DNA of 64,000 nucleotides from the sequence record LC768500.1, one strand, 5' to 3'. This document shows positions 1,511-31,400 of this stretch, one piece after another; positions within the stretch are counted from its first letter, which is position 1; each line of letters starts with the position of its first letter. The notes beneath the pieces are model-generated. The model saw only the letters and a list, made by a program, of their open reading frames with translations. It did no database searches and was not told the origin of the DNA. Source of the stretch: Klebsiella phage phiKp_32. Position numbers and translations under genes: made by a program.

Positions 1511-1592
1511 ACGTCGTATTATCTGATGAGTCTTCGACGCTAAACAAGACGAAACCTAATGAATCTATTTTATTAGGTCATAATTCAACCTA
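1511..1592 (+). ncRNA. type I hammerhead self-cleaving ribozyme (predicted cleavage after C1579)
   Basis: CUGAUGA at 1523-1529; stem II GUCUU/AAGAC at 1530-1550; GAAA at 1551-1554; stem III A-U plus CCUAAU/AUUAGG at 1554-1578; cleavage triplet GUC at 1577-1579; stem I UAUUAU/AUAAU. Confidence 0.6.
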
Positions 1593-2249
1593 AGCGTTGA
1601 ACGGGCAGTTAGGGGCAATGGTCCCCGAGGTCTTCAGCTTCTTCGCCTGCCCGCACTAAAAAGTTCTTTCATGATTAGGAGTGCCGCACTCTACGAGCGG
1701 ACAATAAGCAACCGAAAGTGGGAGAGAAAGAAGCGTGTCTGGTCGCTTGCCGGAAAGTTGGTTCAGGCGGGTTTCTTCCCAACCCAAACGACGCTGCCCA
1801 AGATAGGGCTGCAAGTCGTATTAGCGAATTATACCGGTATGCGGGGTTTCCGCGATAAACCGGGTTAGCTACGGGTAAGAAACCGGCCGGAGTAATCAGC
1901 CTTTCGTATTCGGGTAACGTGAGTTATTGTAGAGATATCTCTGAGGGTTAGGCCAACCCCCGACGTTCTCCGAGTCCGAAGGGAAGCTTGCTCAGCTTCG
2001 TAGGAACTCCAAAATCTCAGACGGTCACACCTCGCAATCTTACGGCAGTATGATTGCCTATTCGTCCTTTGTCGCTCACCAAGGGGCGAGTAGGAAACCT
2101 CTGCCACGGCGTTTCGTTTGCCTTTTACCATTGCTTTTGTTATAACCTCTCTGTTTGAGTTGAGTGTTAACTTCCCCAAGAGTGTAACCTGTTATCTCTC
2201 TCTTCGTGAGGAGTCGGAGATAATGGGGTAAATTCTTAGGAGGTTCGTT

Positions 2250-2438: not shown

Positions 2439-2607
2439 GTCGAGCTACGCGCTCAACCTACCTTAGGGCCGGAAGTAGTTACGACTTAGGGGGAAAGAAG
2501 AGTCGTGCCTTTAAGTACCCCAACCCAATTCGTGTGGTGATCTCTCACATCATCTCATGAATATCGCCACATCATCATTAAAGTTCTACCATGAATTTTT
2601 ATTCCTT

Positions 2608-2656
2608 CCAGTAGGGTTCGGCCCTACTGGACTTTTTTCGCGTTTTTTAAATCGGC
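2608..2656 (+). terminator. rho-independent terminator
   Basis: ccagtaggg-ttcg-gccctactgg hairpin followed by two T-runs. Confidence 0.5.
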
Positions 2657-2769: not shown

Positions 2770-3732
2770 ATGAGTACATTACGTGTTTACGCGTGCGGCG
2801 GTACTGGTATTAATATCGCGTCTAAATGGATTGCCACCGGTGCGAATACGCTTATTCGTAAAGCCCAGTTCATTGGACTGGACAGCAGTGAAAACAACAA
2901 ACCGCATAACGACGCCTTTAAGGTCGAACGTCCTGAAGGAACTCGTGGCGGCGGTAAGGAACGTAAGCTGATCGGTAAAATTGCCGCCGGGTTTATTGAC
3001 AGTATTTTGACCAAACATAAACCGGGCGATTTCAACCTGATCATCATGAACGCGGCAGGCGCTACCGGGAGTACGTTCGGCCCGACTCTGATCAACCGTC
3101 TCCTCTCTCAAGGTGTTCCGGTTATCGCCCTGGTCGTAGGCGACCTGACCTCTGAACTGGAAAACTACAACACGGTTAAAACGTTTGAAAGCCTGGACAA
3201 CCAGCGCATCAATCTGAACGTGCCGGTTATCATCGACTACGTGGACAACGCCAAATATCCCAGCCGCGGATTGGCCGACAAATACGCCATCGGCCGTCTT
3301 GATATCCTGAGCCTGTTCTTAACCGACGAACATGAAGAAAGCGATTTCCAAGACATCCGGAACCTGTTCTATTACAACCAGGTTACCAAGGCGGCGCCTA
3401 CTCTTGCTCGTATCGACTTCTTGACCGATACTCAGTTAGACAACGTTACTCCAGGGCTGGTTGCTGAATTTGGTTTGTATCGTAAAGCGGACGATATCGG
3501 CAGTCATATTAAAAATCTGGCATACCGTTCGACCGGCGTTATTCAGGAAGGTAGCACTAACTTCCCGGCTGGAATAGAACATCTCCACATGGTCTTTGAT
3601 CATGATGCGACGATCAAAGATATCCTGGTTCTGGTTCAGGATCTTAAAGATATTGAGATCCAAAATAACGAACGTTTTAAATCCGCTCAGCAGGTTGGAA
3701 ACGGCGGCGATGATTCTGGAATGTCCTACTAA
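2770..3732 (+). CDS. phuZ: PhuZ-like phage tubulin/FtsZ-family GTPase (320 aa)
   Basis: N-terminal VYACGGTGINIASKW glycine loop (tubulin T1-like). NAAGATGSTFGPTL resembles the T4 loop. Size and codon-optimised use match jumbo-phage PhuZ. Confidence 0.55.
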   Translation: MSTLRVYACGGTGINIASKWIATGANTLIRKAQFIGLDSSENNKPHNDAFKVERPEGTRGGGKERKLIGKIAAGFIDSILTKHKPGDFNLIIMNAAGATGSTFGPTLINRLLSQGVPVIALVVGDLTSELENYNTVKTFESLDNQRINLNVPVIIDYVDNAKYPSRGLADKYAIGRLDILSLFLTDEHEESDFQDIRNLFYYNQVTKAAPTLARIDFLTDTQLDNVTPGLVAEFGLYRKADDIGSHIKNLAYRSTGVIQEGSTNFPAGIEHLHMVFDHDATIKDILVLVQDLKDIEIQNNERFKSAQQVGNGGDDSGMSY

Positions 3733-5394: not shown

Positions 5395-5719
5395 GATAAC
5401 TATCCAACTTTCAATACCGCCGGGAACCGATGTGGAAGGATTTGTTTCTGCATATGGCAGTCTCTTAAGAGCACATCGGGTTAAATGTAACATCCCTAGT
5501 CAGGATGTTCAACTTAACCATCCGTTAGAAGAAGCCCGGGAGCAGATTCTGGGAGACTTCCAACGTACCAATTCCCAGCTTCAGTCGATCAGTGCTAAGT
5601 ACGCCGATGTCTCTGTGTCCAACGTTCTTTCAGATGGGCGCGGGCTGACTATCATCTTAGCATGCGACAAACCTAATAGTGAGTTCATCAATGCGGATTT
5701 CTCACACCAGTCTCAATGA
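5363..5719 (+). CDS. hypothetical protein (possible GTG start at 5387 with gggaga SD)
   Basis: ORF with an alternative in-frame start. Confidence 0.4.
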   Translation: MSSMRENHVPKITIQLSIPPGTDVEGFVSAYGSLLRAHRVKCNIPSQDVQLNHPLEEAREQILGDFQRTNSQLQSISAKYADVSVSNVLSDGRGLTIILACDKPNSEFINADFSHQSQ

Positions 5720-13097: not shown

Positions 13098-16000
13098 GTG
13101 AACGGAGACGTTATGGATCAGTACGGTGATCGTATTATTGATGCATTAACAGCGCCTGAATTTTCATCATTGCAACCAGAGGCTCAGTTTAAAACTTATG
13201 CCGAACAATACGGTGGTGACCTTTCTGACGACAAACGTTTTTATGAACCCCTTTATCCCGACTTCACTGACTATAACCGTTTGCATGATACTGCTAAGGT
13301 CGATCCGGTTTACCTGAACGATTTCGATTTTTGTTTGGAAGAAGACCGAGAACGAATCGCATCTTTGATTCGTATGGACTTCAACACCGACACATTCGAA
13401 ACCGTCGCGAGATGTAGCTGTGGGCATCTGAAGGGCAACTATTTGTTGGGTCAGAAAAGATCATGTCCCATCTGCCAATCCCTTGTAGAGAAAGTCGTAG
13501 AGACTTCCTTAGATACTAAGGTATGGGTCAGGGTTCCAGAAGGCGTAGTTGGATTTATCAGTCCGGCTTATTACAAAACCTTCTTATCGAAGATCGCGAC
13601 TAATTCTCCAAAGATTGAGATCGTGACTTGGCTCATCGATCCGTCTTATCGTCGGGGAAGCCGAGCTCAGCATACTGAGTCTGGTCGTCGGATGTTGGCT
13701 GAACTCGATAAACTCGGAATAGTGCCCGGGCTTAACAGCTTTATATTGAACGCGGACAGATTCATGGAACACTTCCTTGTTGGTGAAGGAAGAGGTGCCG
13801 TGAGCATGAAGCCGGCTGATGGTAAAAAGCATTTGGATAAGTATTACGAATATCGTCATCTTATCTTCCCGCGGTACCTGTCCGTACCCAATAAACTCGC
13901 TACCATCATCGAGCAAGATGGTAAAGATAAGTACGTTTCTTCAACCCAATTGAAAACCTCGGCAATCTACCAATCTATTGCAGATACGAGAGATTCTACT
14001 GAGTTTTATAAATGTACGATTAAGGACCTTAAAGAGAACGCTGATATCGTCGGGAAGGCGATAGTTCGATTAGGTAAACAGAACTCTGATAACTATAAGA
14101 GTCAGCTGTTTGCTAAATCGAGCCTGATACGTAAACACGTAATCGCGGGATCATTATCTTTATCAGGTCGTGGTGTTATCACATCAACGACTGGATTACA
14201 TGATGCCGGTGTTGCTAAGATACCTTGGATCATGGCAGTGGCTATGCTGAAGAAACACATCCTGGGATATCTTTACCGTTTAGGGTACAGCCCCCTGAAA
14301 GCCGAAAGTGTAATCAGTACAGCAGCACACCAAGTCGTCCCGGTAATCGATCAATTCTTTACCAAGCACGAAAAGCAAAAAGACATTGTCTGCATTTTAG
14401 GAAGAAACCCATCAATTCAGTACCTGTCAGCAAAAGCCTTCTTCATGTCGATCAACCGAGATTTAGAAGACGAGTCGATAAACTTACCAATACTCTCAGT
14501 TAAAACCTTTAATGCTAAATCAAGAAGTGAGAGTTCCATACTTTTGTGAGAGAAAGCATGAGAACTATTGAGTTTGAAAGAACACCACGTGAAACAGTAC
14601 TTTTTGAAGAAGACGGTTGGGCTCATCACCCGACTATCAAAAACATCCTATTAAAGGAGAAAGGAAACACTTATCGTTTATTTACCGACGGTAAATGGAA
14701 CGAAGTTATTCCCGAACAAAAATCGAGATACATTTATGTATCCTTTGGCGGGATAGAAATACCCCTTCATCAATTAAAGCTGGAAACCTTTTTAGAAAGA
14801 CCAGCTTCTACCGAAGGACTTAAATTGTTAGGCAATCATATCGATGGTGATATCTTTAATAACGACATCGATAACCTTGAATGGGTGACCTACAGAGGAA
14901 ACATCATTCATGCCTATGAATCAGGATTAAGATCAGATAATAAGCCGTTGGTTTTGGTCGATTTACATTCAGGCGAGGAATTTCCGTTCTATAGCCTAAA
15001 TGAATGTGCTAGATATCTGAAACTTAACCCCTCTAAGATAACCCAGTTTTTGAGAAAGAAGAGAAGTTACCCATTCCAGTGGAAATACGATTTCAAACTA
15101 GATGGGTTGTCTCCTAATAATCTGACCTCTAAAGACGTTGGTAAGGCATCGCAAAATAAACCAAGACCTTTTATTATGCGAAACATAAATACCGGCGAAG
15201 AAAGAGAACTTGGGCTCTATCGTTCGATTAGAAGAATTTGGGGCGTGTCGGAAAGAACTCTCCAAAAAGTTTTAAGCGGTAAAATGAAGATAGATGATGT
15301 TTGGGAATTTGTGCCGATTACTGATCCCGACAGACTTATCCATCTTTCTAATACACTGCCAGACATAAAGGAGGCGTTTGATACAACTTCTAATAGAAAA
15401 AATATGGCGGCTAAAAAGTCTAAAGCGATTAAAGTAACGGGTCCTGATGAAACCACGTTCTATTCGTCTATTAAAGACTTTTCACAGAAAAACGGATTCA
15501 ACGCCGCAACCATACAAAAGTTTATTTATAAGAACCCGGGGAAACCCTGGAAGAATTATGTTATCACGTATGTTTAACTCTCACTTCTTTGGCCCAGTAG
15601 ACGCGAAAGCTCTGCTGCGTACTCTCTCTAATTGCTGGAAACTCCTAAAGCTCGTTCACCTCGTATAGAGGGGTCGAAAGACAGAAACAACGAACGAGAT
15701 ATCTCACGCTAACCAATAATGCTAAAAGATAAATAATGGGTTACCTAGCAGCGAACCCTACCTCGGTAGGAGACGTTCAACGACTAGAGCTGAAACGCTC
15801 GTAGGATCCTAGTGTGGATCCGAAATGGGAGAGGACCTAAGTTTGACAGTAGTCAAATATGGTTAAGATATAGTCTGTGCCCTCAGGAAATCTGAGGGAG
15901 GGTGTCTCAGCACACCTGCTCCATATGGAACGGAGTGGACAATCAGGATTTTGACGGTAAACGTATTGCCGCCTAGCTTAGTAATGAGTTAGTGAATAAG

Positions 16001-27463: not shown

Positions 27464-30400
27464 ATGGCAGAAAAATTTGTCTATAAGAAACCCATAAACC
27501 AGCTTAAACCAGAGTTGATGTCTATCAATATTAACTTGAACTCATTTCCCTGGTCGGTTTCATCGTCACGTCAATATATGTTGGGTGGTAACGTAGCTAA
27601 AGCAGTTTCCATACAAGGGGCGTCGACAAGACGCAATCCTACCGGCTTCGAACCAGAATATGCTAAGTACGCTCGTAAAGTCGTAGCCCCGTCAAACATG
27701 ACTGTAGAGAGAACATTTTATCAGCGATCTCTACAACCCGGTAGCAATCTTGCAGATGATTGGGCGGAGATCCACGTTATCTTCTTTAATGAAGAACACC
27801 AGCTTTATGATCTCTTAACTATTCCACGATTTAATACGCAGAATACTTACGTTGGGTTTGAGTACAAACTTAACAAGGATAACCTTCGTAAACTCAGTAC
27901 AGAATCACCGACCTTTAAGAAAGGCGATGTGTTTGCGTATTCTCCAAATATCAGCGATACTGGAGAGTGGATGTTTGGTACTGAGGCGATGGTTTGTGGG
28001 ATGACCGCACCTTATACCGAAGAAGACGGCATTGCTATTACTGAGAGCTTTGCTCGTAAGCTGACCAGCATCTTCCAGCATTCTCGTAAGTTCTCCTGGA
28101 ACGAAGCAGAGTACGTCCCCCTGAATCTTTATGGAACATTAGATTCCCCACGACCGTTCCCTGAGAACGGAGAAAGTATTCGTAGTGACGGCATCGTCAT
28201 GGGATTCCGTAGACGTGACACTTCGAGCGCTCTGGTGGGCTTAACCAAAAAAGCACTCATGCGTCCTGATCAAACTTATGATATTCTTTTCTACGCACCT
28301 AAAGATTGTGTTGTTAAAAATATCTCCGTCAAGTCAGATCGTTATAAGAACGTTTCCAATAACAAACGTCAGGAGAAGATTACTCAGCCTCACACTCAGT
28401 TGCTGGAACGTTATGAACAGCGCTCTAACCAAATGGCGTTTGAGGTCCAGGAGTGGTATTACCGGATGGATGCGAAGTTTAAAGATTCCGATCTTCCTTT
28501 CACCCATGCGCTCCAAGAGTTCATCTCTAAACAGTTAGGCGACGTCACTAAAAACTTCGCTACCGGCAAGTATAACCAGGTCAAGCGAACTCACCGCAAT
28601 AAGGCGCTTTTGGATTGGAACGTCGAGATTACTTTAAAGGAAAGAGTCACTGCGCGTAAACGTTTTAAAATTACCGACACTCAAGGTGCTTCGCCCCACA
28701 AGTATCCGTTATCTTAAAATGATGTTGGGGTTGTAAAGACTTTTTGAAGGAGGTCTTTATGACGGTGAAATTGATAGGAAATCCCGATATAGAAGTAGAC
28801 TTACTCGAAAAGTCTTTATTTATAAAGGGAGAAGAAATTATTGAAGGGAACGCCTTCCGAGTAGATTTATTCGGTGGAAGTTTCCAAGTGACACGGGAAT
28901 GGCTAATCTCGTTCGCTCGTTATAACTTGGATATCCCAAAAGAGCATGTCGATAAAATAACCTTTATTCGATTTGCTAAAACATGGTCTCCGTTTCGTAA
29001 AACCAATAAGCGATACGAAATACCCGTCTTTGACGAACCTATGGTTTCTGAAGACGGATACGCGATCATACCAACCGATTTTGAATATGAAATTAGTCGG
29101 GAAGGAGTTATTAGAAATCGTAAGACCAAACGAATCGCTCCATTGTACGAGAAAGACTACCTTTTTTGTTCGCTAAAGGGAGAGGAAAGGTTACATCGTA
29201 CTGTGGCTCTTGTTTGGTGCTATAACGAGAACTTCGAAACACGACCGATTGTTAATCATAAAGATGGAAATAAGCTTAATCCTCACGCAGATAACTTGGA
29301 ATGGTCATCGTTTTCTTTAAACGCAATTCATGCGTTTAAAGAAGGGCTTAGGGATGATAATAAGCCTTGTGTGATGAGGAACATCTTTACCGGAGAGGTT
29401 ACTGAGTTTTATTCGGTAAGTGCCGTTGCTTATGAATTCGGACTAGGATTTGAGTCAGCCTTCGCGTACCTTAAACGTAAAATGCGGCAATCCCCTTTCA
29501 TGAAAGAATATGAGTTTGTGTTGAAAGGAGATCCTTGGGAAATTCCGTTGGGCGGTATAAAGGGAGTAAGAGGGCGGTATCTCTTCACTATAGAAAAACC
29601 AAATGGTGAAGTGGTATACCGGACCAATATCCCTAAAATCATATCCGAATTCAAGTTATGGAATCTCCCGAGTTGGTCGAAGGATTGCGTTGTAGAAAGG
29701 ATGAAGGAAGAACATCCCGATTGGTCGATTTCTGTTATTGATTACTTTAGGGCGGGCGAGTATCAGGTCAAAAACCTACAAACCGGAGAAGTGATCGATT
29801 TCGTAAAACCCGCCGAAGTATCCGGGTTGATAGGCGTCCCTCGTCAAACCATTAATAAGTGGTTAACCGAAAAACAATTTAACGTCAATCACAACGGTTG
29901 GGTATTCAGGGAGAAATCATCTTCTGAATGGGATGAGGTTTTCCCGAAACCCAATTCTAAGAAAGCGGTATTGGTGACCGACATCAATACAGGTAAAGTG
30001 TCTGAGTTTGAATCCGTAATAGCCGCGGCTTCTCACTTTGGTATTAACAAACGTTCAGTGGGTAGAAGGATACTATCCGGAAGTCTTTTCGAGAGCAAGA
30101 AGTTTAGTTACAAGCCCCAACATCCTTCATAAGACATTTGATATTTGTGAGACAGGGCCGGCTAGGCACGAAAGTCCTAGACCGTTATCTCTTTGAATTG
30201 CTGGAAAAACCACAAAAGTCTGATGCCTGCTTAGCAGGAGGGGATAACCCGGAAATAAGTTCAGACCTGACCTATGCTAACCAATAACGCTAAGGGTCGT
30301 TAAAAAGGGTGGATCAGCAGCGAACCCTACTTCGGTAGGAGGCGTTCAACGACTAAGGCCTAACCAGCCTGTACTGGAGACATGATGTTTCTGGGAAGTG

Positions 30401-31400
30401 GAGAGAGACCTAAGTTCGGCTCTAGCCGAATATGGTTAAGATATAGTCTGTTCCCTAATAACACTAGGGCGGGTGTCTTCGCACACCGGGTTCCACGATG
30501 GAACTGGACAAAAAGAAAGGTGTAATCGTTCACATTATACCCGATGCTAACGCACCGCGATACGCCGATGGACGTCGATCAGAAGTCATTATTAACAATA
30601 CTCCTGCTTTTAGACGCCAGATCTTTTCGGCGTTAATAGAAGCTGGGGTTAACTTAATAGGCTTGGAGATCGAAAACAGGATCAGAGTTCTCGTTGCTCA
30701 AAATGGAGGGTATAAGAAAGCTTATCAGGAGCTCATTAAGTTTTATCGTTCTACCGCTCCGGAGTTCGCTGATATCGTTGATACCGCTCTCCCCACGGAA
30801 GAAGAACAATTCGATCACGTTGACTTTGTGTTGAGTGATAAGATCTCTGTTCAGCGTCGAAGCGACACTCAGCTGTATGGCGCGGATATTCTGAGATTGA
30901 TGCGGGAAACCTATCCGGATATCAAACCTCAAAAGGCAATTTACGTTAACGAGCTCGGTCAGGAAATCACCACCATGTTCCCTGTCAGTATCAGCAGCAT
31001 GTATTACATCCTGCTTGATAAGTTCGGTAACGATATGAGTTGCCAGTCATTCCCTAAGCGTAACGTGTACGGTCTGCCGTCTAAGTTGAATCATGGCGAT
31101 CGTTATAGGGATTGGCACCGCGCTCAACCAGGTCGTAATATGGGTGAGGCAGAATCACGTCAGAAAAATACTCAAATGGGGGGAGAGGAAGTTGTAAGGC
31201 AGTTGGCGGCAGCTAACTCCCCTTACGTTTGTATCATGATGACGAAACGTATTATTCGGGCTGATAATCCGTTCCGAATTAAAACCATTATTAAACCTGA
31301 AGAGTATGCGATGAGCCGATCTTTGGGAATGACGATGAATTTACTCAACGACGCGGGTTATACTTTACGTAAGGAAAAAGACAGTGATCTTACTTCGTGA
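27464..31400 (+). CDS. multisubunit RNAP beta-like C-terminal subunit, interrupted by a group I intron. Predicted exons 27464-28690 and 30516-31400, about 703 aa
   Basis: MTAPYTEEDGIAITE matches beta MPWNGYNFEDSILVSE. The junction TQGA|KGVIVHIIPDANAPRYADGRRSEVIINNTPAFRRQ matches [20 protein letters not shown]…VLNPLGVPSRMNIGQ. MYYILLDK…DMSCQSF and LGMTMNLL match the beta C-terminus. Confidence 0.55.
28691..30515 (+). mobile_element. group I intron with HNH homing-endonuclease ORF; paralogous to the 14517-15946 intron
   Basis: Core at 30270-30515 is about 75% identical to 15700-15946: aaccaataaYgctaa, cagcgaaccctacYtcggtagga, gttcaacgactaRg, gacctaagtt, aatatggttaagatatagtctgt. The 3' end uggacaaaaaG parallels uggacaaucaG. 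Confidence 0.55.
28744..30132 (+). CDS. HNH homing endonuclease with NUMOD-like repeats (intron-encoded)
   Basis: VNHKDGNKLNPHADNLEWSS HNH motif; three repeats NIFTGEVTEF…, NLQTGEVIDF…, DINTGKVSEF…. Confidence 0.7.
   Translation: MKEVFMTVKLIGNPDIEVDLLEKSLFIKGEEIIEGNAFRVDLFGGSFQVTREWLISFARYNLDIPKEHVDKITFIRFAKTWSPFRKTNKRYEIPVFDEPMVSEDGYAIIPTDFEYEISREGVIRNRKTKRIAPLYEKDYLFCSLKGEERLHRTVALVWCYNENFETRPIVNHKDGNKLNPHADNLEWSSFSLNAIHAFKEGLRDDNKPCVMRNIFTGEVTEFYSVSAVAYEFGLGFESAFAYLKRKMRQSPFMKEYEFVLKGDPWEIPLGGIKGVRGRYLFTIEKPNGEVVYRTNIPKIISEFKLWNLPSWSKDCVVERMKEEHPDWSISVIDYFRAGEYQVKNLQTGEVIDFVKPAEVSGLIGVPRQTINKWLTEKQFNVNHNGWVFREKSSSEWDEVFPKPNSKKAVLVTDINTGKVSEFESVIAAASHFGINKRSVGRRILSGSLFESKKFSYKPQHPS

Follow-up and report, generated by a model that had tools for sequence, protein, structure and literature searches.

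Is the hammerhead-like motif that lies upstream of the tubulin gene phuZ in Klebsiella phage phiKp_32 a working self-cleaving RNA, and if so, which transcript would it process? The motif occupies positions 1512-1584 of the + strand in a 64,000-nt stretch of the phage sequence (LC768500.1), referred to here as the window, between a gene for a hypothetical protein of 244 residues (526-1260) and the PhuZ gene (2770-3732). Direct reading of the sequence finds every invariant core base, three helices and a GUC cleavage site in the type I arrangement, and the comparisons presented below favor, with a probability of roughly 0.7, a genuine type I hammerhead that is braced by a pseudoknot and would trim a conserved structured RNA at its 5′ end. 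That the motif is a functional hammerhead is, as a prediction from sequence, very likely; that its role is the 5′ maturation of the downstream RNA appears probable, though this step is the less secure of the two.

The hammerhead core and its pseudoknot

All of the residues expected of a hammerhead core are present, namely C3 U4 G5 A6 N7 G8 A9, G12 A13 A14, the A1554-U1578 pair and C1579 (H17, not G), as are the G10.1-C11.1 (1530/1550) and C15.2-G16.2 (1555/1577) pairs, and they are embedded in the type I order of stem I 5′ strand, CUGAUGA, stem II hairpin, GAAA, stem III hairpin, UH and stem I 3′ strand (Table 1). A descriptor for this topology (CUGANGA, GAAA, A15.1-U16.1, H17 and at least 4 bp per stem) matches exactly once on both strands of the window and never in 300 dinucleotide-preserving shuffles, the copy number being that of the 64-kb window, which was scanned for further copies, rather than of the whole genome. 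Hammerhead cleavage leaves a 5′ fragment with a 2′,3′-cyclic phosphate, together with a 3′ fragment that bears a 5′-hydroxyl (5′-OH); here, the predicted products are a 5′ fragment ending in the cyclic phosphate, along with a 3′ fragment that would start with 5′-OH at A1580.

In addition to the three helices of the junction, the CGUCG just upstream of stem I (1512-1516) pairs with CGACG (1535-1539) in loop II, and this 5-bp pseudoknot, already paired in the minimum free energy (MFE) fold, is the tertiary brace that joins the 5′ flank to loop II. The loop itself comprises 11 nt (CGACGCTAAAC, 1535-1545), with the 3′ strand of the pseudoknot followed by CUAAAC. The pairing was noticed in the window because the 5′ flank of a distantly related locus, L128 (described below), reads CGUCU and complements the AGACG of its own loop II.

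An earlier, sequence-only reading of this stretch had already placed the core strands, stem II with its 11-nt loop, the GAAA and U1578-C1579, all correctly on direct inspection, and its assignment of a type I hammerhead with a predicted cut after C1579 is supported by conservation and covariation. The helices around the core required revision. The stem III that had been given as 7 bp with an 11-nt loop exists and extends to 10 bp with a 5-nt loop, and the ATTAT/ATAAT pairing of stem I (1518-1522/1580-1584) stands, while the further pairs proposed for this stem do not, U1517·U1585 and C1515·A1587 being mismatched. G1530, which had been suggested as the position of a mutant control, is residue 10.1 and not catalytic; G8 and G12 correspond to G1528 and G1551, respectively.

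Table 1. Features of the ribozyme, the downstream RNA and the adjoining region (positions in the window).
Feature	Position	Strand	Remarks
Pseudoknot 5′ strand, CGUCG	1512-1516	+	1-nt gap before stem I; perfect complement of 1535-1539
Stem I 5′ strand, AUUAU	1518-1522	+	Partner 1580-1584
Core strand C3-A9, CUGAUGA	1523-1529	+	Direct reading; unchanged in all relatives
Stem II, GUCUU/AAGAC	1530-1550	+	1530-1534/1546-1550; loop II 1535-1545
Core G12 A13 A14 and A15.1 (GAAA)	1551-1554	+	Direct reading; invariant in relatives
Stem III, 10 bp	1554-1578	+	1554-1563 with 1569-1578; loop UCUAU 1564-1568; ends in U16.1 (1578)
Predicted cleavage site, C17/A1.1	1579-1580	+	GUC triplet; from the hammerhead consensus
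Stem I 3′ strand, AUAAU	1580-1584	+	Sole ribozyme part remaining on the 3′ product
Hairpin H1, UUCAAC/GUUGAA	1584-1601	+	Directly after stem I, shares its last base
Conserved structured RNA	1580-2120	+	Directly 3′ of the ribozyme; without Rfam family
RNA helix P0	1739-1742/1750-1753	+	
RNA motif AAGUUG	1755-1760	+	
RNA helix Pa	about 1766-1780/1871-1888	+	
RNA motif CAGCC	1897-1901	+	
RNA helix Pb	1902-1914/about 1968-1981	+	
RNA motif GGGAAG, hairpin Pc	1983-1988/1994-1999	+	
Small conserved ORF (open reading frame), 62 aa	2250-2438	+	Shine-Dalgarno AGGAGG at 2238; annotated in Miami, KPN8 and VB_ZK_P1
Intrinsic terminator, 11-bp stem and U tract	2607-2641	+	2607-2631 in the text; first strong terminator 3′ of the ribozyme; kept in relatives

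Conservation and covariation

Over 1200-2800 the window is 99.8% identical to Klebsiella phage YC1, 99.3% to Klebsiella phage Miami (genus Miamivirus; Miami and YC1 are both about 253 kb) and about 93% to KPN8 and Raoultella phage VB_ZK_P1. Within this 1.6-kb region, over which the four Miami-like genomes are themselves about 93% identical, the block 1487-1680 is near-invariant, and the lone stem change among them, A1518G in Miami and VB_ZK_P1, replaces an A-U with a G·U pair. A fifth Miami-like copy of the motif is found in contig L137. A wider comparison is offered by L128, a Logan contig recovered by a PhuZ protein search (a search for related loci in IMG/VR with the PhuZ protein returned no relative), in which PhuZ is only 49% identical and a hammerhead occupies the syntenic place, 5′ of PhuZ and of a homologous 63-residue ORF. 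The stem I of L128, GUCAU/AUGAC against AUUAU/AUAAU in the window, differs by two compensatory pairs, its pseudoknot is CGUCU/AGACG against CGUCG/CGACG, and its stem III is shorter yet paired.

Further siblings were sought by combining the core with either the loop tail TAAAC (in IMG/VR, JGI metagenomes and GTDB genomes) or the downstream motif AAGTTG (in IMG/VR); the latter combination gave about 65 loci in each of two IMG/VR scans, near a rough chance estimate, and only 5 loci are true members. The resulting subfamily spans about ten independent lineages (L129/L131/L132, L130/L135, L133, L134, L136/L139, L138, L151, L177/L186, L184, L191 and L239). All siblings share the type I order, stems I and II of 4-5 bp each and a GUC or GUA cleavage triplet, with a stem III of variable length (5 bp to over 12 bp) that accepts insertions. 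Loop II opens with 4-6 bases complementary to those just 5′ of stem I, and its composition of pseudoknot strand followed by YUAAAY is common to the subfamily, TAAAC having been part of one search pattern. In L136 (7614-7689, - strand; the same in L139) the AGGAUA of loop II pairs with UAUCCU 3′ of stem I, as a mirror-image pseudoknot.

Since MAFFT misaligned the 3′ halves of divergent ribozymes, model-based alignments (A6 and A8) and a manual parse were used instead. On A8, which holds 12 sequences, 92.9% of the pair cells are paired, compared with 63.8% in shuffles (0/500) and 30-47% when the partners are slid, and changes on both sides are seen in 19 of the 23 pairs (15/18 in stems I-III). 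Taken helix by helix, stem I is 93.3% paired with both-side changes in all five pairs, stem II 98.3% with such changes in four of five, and stem III 98.9% with six of eight. The pseudoknot, which is absent from both the search pattern and the covariance model, is 78.3% paired on A8 when three register-shifted members are counted as broken; when eight sequences are parsed by hand, each of its five pairs covaries across lineages and 40 of 40 cells are paired. The sequence-only reading had held that a motif without conservation in related phages could be a chance match. Near-invariance in five Miami-like phages, synteny in L128 and recurrence in about ten lineages speak for conservation, and on these sequence comparisons the motif is evidently under purifying selection, with covariation that includes the pseudoknot and a fixed place 5′ of the downstream RNA.

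Evidence against the assignment and the limits of Rfam models

A number of points weigh against a pseudoknot-braced ribozyme that matures a downstream RNA. Cleavage is a prediction from sequence, and in the window the RNA may be simply the long 5′ untranslated region (UTR) of the 62-residue ORF. The patterns by which siblings were found fixed TAAAC or AAGTTG in addition to the core and to three pairs of stem II, and the alignment A8 was fitted to the stems of the model, with L133 and L135 parsed by hand. The best Rfam match, Hammerhead_3 (RF00008), reaches 24.2 bits against a cut-off of 48.5 and lies in a wrong, permuted register, and RAGATH-1-hammerhead (RF03152) reaches 21 bits against 56.3. 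The nested hammerhead fold, at -10.2 kcal/mol, is also weaker than the nested MFE fold of -17.6 kcal/mol, which uses the pseudoknot helix instead. Given this difference, and a stem I of only five A-U/U-A pairs, activity would need the pseudoknot together with stems I and II.

The tests against Rfam included RF00163, RF00008, RF02276, RF03152 and clan CL00010, with permissive thresholds in addition to the gathering thresholds. At the latter, no hammerhead is reported in the window and the only matches are two group I introns; the sequence-only reading had taken a score below the gathering threshold as evidence against the ribozyme, and by that measure the result is unfavorable. However, in five siblings with clear covariation (L151, L177, L184, L191 and L239) Rfam 15 finds no hammerhead even at E ≤ 0.5, so that the low score of the window reflects a limit of the models and the test is uninformative here. 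Only one sibling, L134, passes Hammerhead_1 (RF00163; 37 bits versus 34), and the Rfam hammerhead models do not accommodate a loop II of 11-15 nt or the long stem III. A model built from L128, L129, L134, L136 and L138 only, and thus from no Miami-like sequence (R2), scores the window at 56.8 bits (E = 8.9e-16) as the sole match in 64 kb, and the remaining members score 40.7-81.2 bits with the subfamily model. Other self-cleaving classes, including hepatitis delta virus (HDV)-like/theta, twister, pistol and hatchet, were not found in the ORF-poor region 1240-2790, where the weak Rfam matches are to hammerhead models only. As judged from these alignments and scores, the motif belongs to a pseudoknotted type I subfamily that is effectively missing from Rfam.

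A conserved structured RNA downstream of the ribozyme

The sequence-only reading had described the surroundings as an ORF-poor leader. The first part of this description holds, as 1261-2249 contains no convincing ORF; the region is more than a mere leader, being a conserved structured RNA. Among Miami-like phages this RNA is at least 98% identical, whereas the adjacent 244-residue protein is only 83% identical, and the substitutions that do occur respect the structure: one is fully compensatory (U-A to C-G, 1838/1859), seven are C/U changes that all face G, and G/A changes fall only at unpaired or compensated sites. The fold has a z-score of -2.77.

The same order of motifs and helices recurs in L128, L129, L138, L151, L177, L184, L191 and Erwinia phage RisingSun (L006), with loci including 1580-2120 (+) in the window, L128:600-945, L006:5560-5800 and L151:449-218 (-). 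In this layout, as parsed manually, a hairpin after stem I is followed by a helix abutting AAGUUG, a further helix that encloses a variable insert, (G)CAGCCU, a long helix, RUGGR and a hairpin. The helix that starts at once 3′ of CAGCC has 9-14 bp, with shuffle p ≤ 0.018 in six of eight lineages. AAGUUG is placed between +185 and +231 relative to the core in the window (1755, +231), L128, L129 and L138, and is present in L151, L177 and L184 as well, but there it was part of the search pattern; the AAGTTG...CAGCCT pair occurs exactly once on the + strand of the window and not on its - strand. In place of H1, a hairpin of other sequence is found in L128, L151 and L184, and H1 may help to sequester the released stem I strand after cleavage.

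No Rfam family matches the downstream RNA even at E ≤ 10, and BLAST finds no similarity to it beyond Miami-like phages and L128. Likenesses to the P4 element of RNase P (GGAAAGUCC), signal recognition particle (SRP) RNA (GGAAGCAGCC), trans-activating CRISPR RNA (tracrRNA), the 3′ end of 16S rRNA and group I introns were considered and rejected, with no Rfam support for any of them at E ≤ 10 and with the proposed pairings failing.

The genes that follow the module differ between lineages; what comes after the ribozyme is non-coding sequence in every case. The L151 ribozyme begins 5 nt beyond the 3′ end of a tRNA-Arg, and its 232-nt RNA reaches exactly to a tRNA-Asn; the RNA between the ribozyme and a tRNA-Thr measures 351 nt in L177 and 314 nt in L138, and in L184 the ribozyme and RNA precede an unrelated ORF. 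In L138 (1362-1670, on a contig of a Dongiaceae metagenome-assembled genome) the module is flanked by a permuted, two-piece transfer-messenger RNA (tmRNA; 96.9 bits) and tRNAs, which may reflect the integration of a prophage beside ssrA.

In RisingSun this RNA is again present 5′ of PhuZ, with AAGUUGU at 5643, GCAGCCUGUUGG at 5690 and AAUGGAGUG at about 5741, and neither the descriptor, Rfam nor model R1 finds a hammerhead near PhuZ in RisingSun, Aphrodite1 or PDCC-1. The presence of the RNA without a detectable hammerhead in RisingSun argues that the ribozyme is accessory to the RNA, which is the primary element. About 115 nt 5′ of its AAGUUG, RisingSun has a segment CUGAUGUG...GAAAAG (L006:5524-5575), which may be a decayed hammerhead or a chance likeness and fits no canonical core. 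In OBP, Kc263, AH04 and D3 only about 130 nt precede PhuZ, which leaves no room for the RNA, and the contig L127 (PhuZ 74% identical) begins inside the conserved RNA, with a near-identical segment, and is too short to reach the ribozyme.

Proposed mechanism and alternative explanations

In the mechanism that we favor, the ribozyme would fold upon transcription of the + strand, its weak stem I being braced to stem II by the pseudoknot, and would cut itself between C1579 and A1580, probably co-transcriptionally. Because the type I order places nearly the whole ribozyme upstream of the cut, most of it would stay on the discarded 5′ fragment, and the downstream RNA would be freed with a 5′-OH and five ribozyme bases at its end. 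This RNA, from 1580 to about 2120, possibly continues through the 62-residue ORF as far as the 2607-2631 terminator. The ribozyme would thereby set the 5′-OH end of the RNA independently of host nucleases. A broader proposal, which we hold at somewhat short of even odds, is that the hammerhead serves as the 5′-processing module of an undescribed family of structured, stable phage RNAs of about 230 to 550 nt with a function of their own, perhaps related to translation or tRNAs. Under this tentative proposal the RNA would reside both in the tRNA arrays of smaller phages and 5′ of PhuZ in two jumbo genera, the Miami-like phages with a hammerhead and RisingSun with none detected.

A real hammerhead could instead serve mRNA processing, parting the transcript of the 244-residue gene from that of the 62-residue ORF and PhuZ, with 1580-2249 as a long 5′ UTR whose 5′-OH alters stability or translation. 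All genes here are on the + strand, no strong terminator lies within 1260-2607, the structured region is succeeded by the 62-residue ORF in the window as well as in L127 and L128, and phage hammerheads have been proposed to cut polycistronic transcripts into gene-length mRNAs (Perreault 2011, PMC3088659). We nevertheless consider this unlikely, as the module precedes tRNAs in L151, L177 and L138 and an unrelated ORF in L184, so that no protein gene is constantly linked to it; conservation of the RNA also exceeds that of the flanking proteins, and its substitutions preserve structure. A regulated switch, in which the pseudoknot strand or the 3′ strand of stem I alternates between the active fold and competing helices such as H1, with the speed of transcription or some factor adjusting cleavage during infection, would be in keeping with the weakness of stem I, with the one-base overlap of its 3′ strand with H1, and with the potential of that strand in L177 for pairing with a second copy of the 5′ strand located downstream. 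These overlaps are small, however, and sequestration after cleavage accounts for them equally well; with no ligand-binding domain or conserved alternative helix demonstrated, a switch is quite improbable.

The failure of all Rfam gathering scores, the single copy in the window and an activity that is only predicted would also suit a motif with no function at present, either the inactive remnant of a mobile or viroid-like element or a fortuitous likeness to the consensus. Such an origin is hard to reconcile with the lack of matches in shuffled sequence, with a motif that stays near-invariant amid a diverging region and with the compensatory changes that about ten lineages show in stem I, stem III and the pseudoknot, and neither a second ribozyme nor flanking repeats point to a circular-RNA element; we regard it as highly improbable. 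Scarcely credible, finally, is a type III hammerhead in the register of the top Rfam alignment (Hammerhead_3, E = 0.0078 in a 501-nt search), which would span 1508-1560 and cut after the GUC at 1513-1515: three of its seven stem III pairs are non-canonical, its stem I shrinks to 2 bp with a 3-nt loop, and its GUC sits within the covarying strand of the pseudoknot, whereas the type I register has three full covarying helices.

Genomic context

Homologues of the small ORF, of 62-63 residues, precede PhuZ in L127 and L128, and share with the Miami-like phages the pattern ...IRY...TYS...NA..IFD...FSI..F. The terminator that the sequence-only reading had placed at 2608 is confirmed as a strong one. 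At the position of the ribozyme the GenBank annotation has only doubtful - strand ORFs and no ribozyme. Two - strand ORFs for hypothetical proteins, 1609-1788 (-) and 1866-2180 (-), correspond to Miami gp268 and gp269 and are annotated in Miami and KPN8; their equivalents in VB_ZK_P1 are not annotated, they overlap the region whose substitutions fit a + strand RNA structure, and they are probably spurious calls.

ARAGORN finds no tRNA gene in the window, and 1240-2790 has no tRNA or tmRNA match in Rfam at E ≤ 10. A tRNA/tmRNA reading of GGGGGTTCAATCCCC at 1389-1403 was rejected, as neither program supports it and the hairpin reads better as a terminator-like stem. Upstream of the hammerhead, a 13-nt block, ACCUCCUUACCAC (1341-1353, +), bears a likeness to the anti-Shine-Dalgarno 3′ end of 16S rRNA. 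An identical block is present in the distant L128 (468-480), again 5′ of the hammerhead, where a second CCUCCUUA occurs at 518; on the - strand the block reads as a strong ribosome-binding site, without a conserved ORF. Elsewhere in the window, the two group I introns lie at 15572-15898 (+, 58.6 bits) and 30118-30469 (+, 51.3 bits), above the Rfam gathering score of 50.

Comparison with known systems and significance

The element shares its catalytic core and three-way junction with the Rfam families Hammerhead_1, Hammerhead_3 and RAGATH-1-hammerhead. Pseudoknot-braced hammerheads of all three types are common in phages and prophages, and require the pseudoknot for speed (Perreault 2011, PMC3088659). 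The present motif resembles these in its canonical core, its short stems I and II, a pseudoknot within their range of 4-6 bp that holds the two stems parallel, and its intergenic, sense-strand location in a phage genome. It differs in the strands that are joined, which are loop II and a single-stranded 5′ extension of an open stem I here, and loop I and the 3′ tail of stem II in the published type II consensus (PMC3088659), as well as in the conserved YUAAAY tail of loop II and the coupling of the ribozyme to a specific downstream RNA.

Type I-ordered hammerheads were found at 120 or more loci in our IMG/VR scan. The abundant ones with the loop UGAAAAUU share with the window the type I order, a stem I of 5-6 bp, the GUCUU/AAGAC stem II and the GUC site; they differ in having an 8-nt loop II, no consistent pseudoknot with the 5′ flank and often several copies per contig (L027 and L061), compared with the single copy in the window. 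One 347-kb IMG/VR contig (L076:6483-6700) contains two type I hammerheads at a distance of about 150 nt. The 3′ strand of stem I of the first resembles the 5′ acceptor strand of a tRNA-like sequence, with the T-arm GGTTCGAATCC downstream, and its predicted cut would make the mature 5′ end of that sequence in place of RNase P.

Theta ribozymes, which are minimal HDV-like ribozymes, adjoin phage tRNAs and, in gut phages, have been proposed to define the 3′ ends of tRNAs (Kienbeck 2024, PMC10879173). As with theta, a small self-cleaving ribozyme in arrays of phage RNA genes is predicted here to define an RNA end without a host nuclease, and siblings of the motif adjoin tRNAs. The two belong to different classes, and theta cuts at its own 5′ end to yield a tRNA 3′ end, whereas the hammerhead is predicted to cut at its own 3′ end and to yield the 5′ end of an RNA that is not a tRNA; the window also differs from the theta setting in its lack of tRNAs. 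GOLLD is reportedly a large phage-associated RNA. The same description applies to ROOL (Weinberg 2017, PMC5737381). The downstream RNA resembles both in its large size, its ornate structure, its occurrence in phages and its frequent proximity to tRNAs, and unlike them it matches neither RF01998, RF03087 nor any other Rfam family at E ≤ 10. We know of no occurrence of the AAGUUG, GCAGCCU and RUGGR motifs in the GOLLD or ROOL families.

The hammerhead class and its presence in phages are already known, and what is new here is an example in the giant Klebsiella phage family; the literature search found no paper that links hammerheads with jumbo phages or describes the downstream RNA. The sequence-only reading had remarked that self-cleaving ribozymes are not among the features usually annotated in nucleus-forming jumbo phages; the surprise is confined to this phage group, and in phages generally hammerheads are common (PMC3088659 and the IMG/VR scan). 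As the subfamily scores far below the Rfam cut-offs, and five of its members go unreported, counts of phage hammerheads based on Rfam would be underestimates.

The coupled RNA family is a more novel lead than the ribozyme itself. If the proposed reading is true, a self-cleaving ribozyme would be added to the RNA elements of the PhuZ-encoding jumbo-phage lineage, its predicted 5′-OH end at A1580 would ease the detection of the processed RNA in infected cells, and the ribozyme would point to a candidate new phage RNA common to tRNA arrays and jumbo phages.

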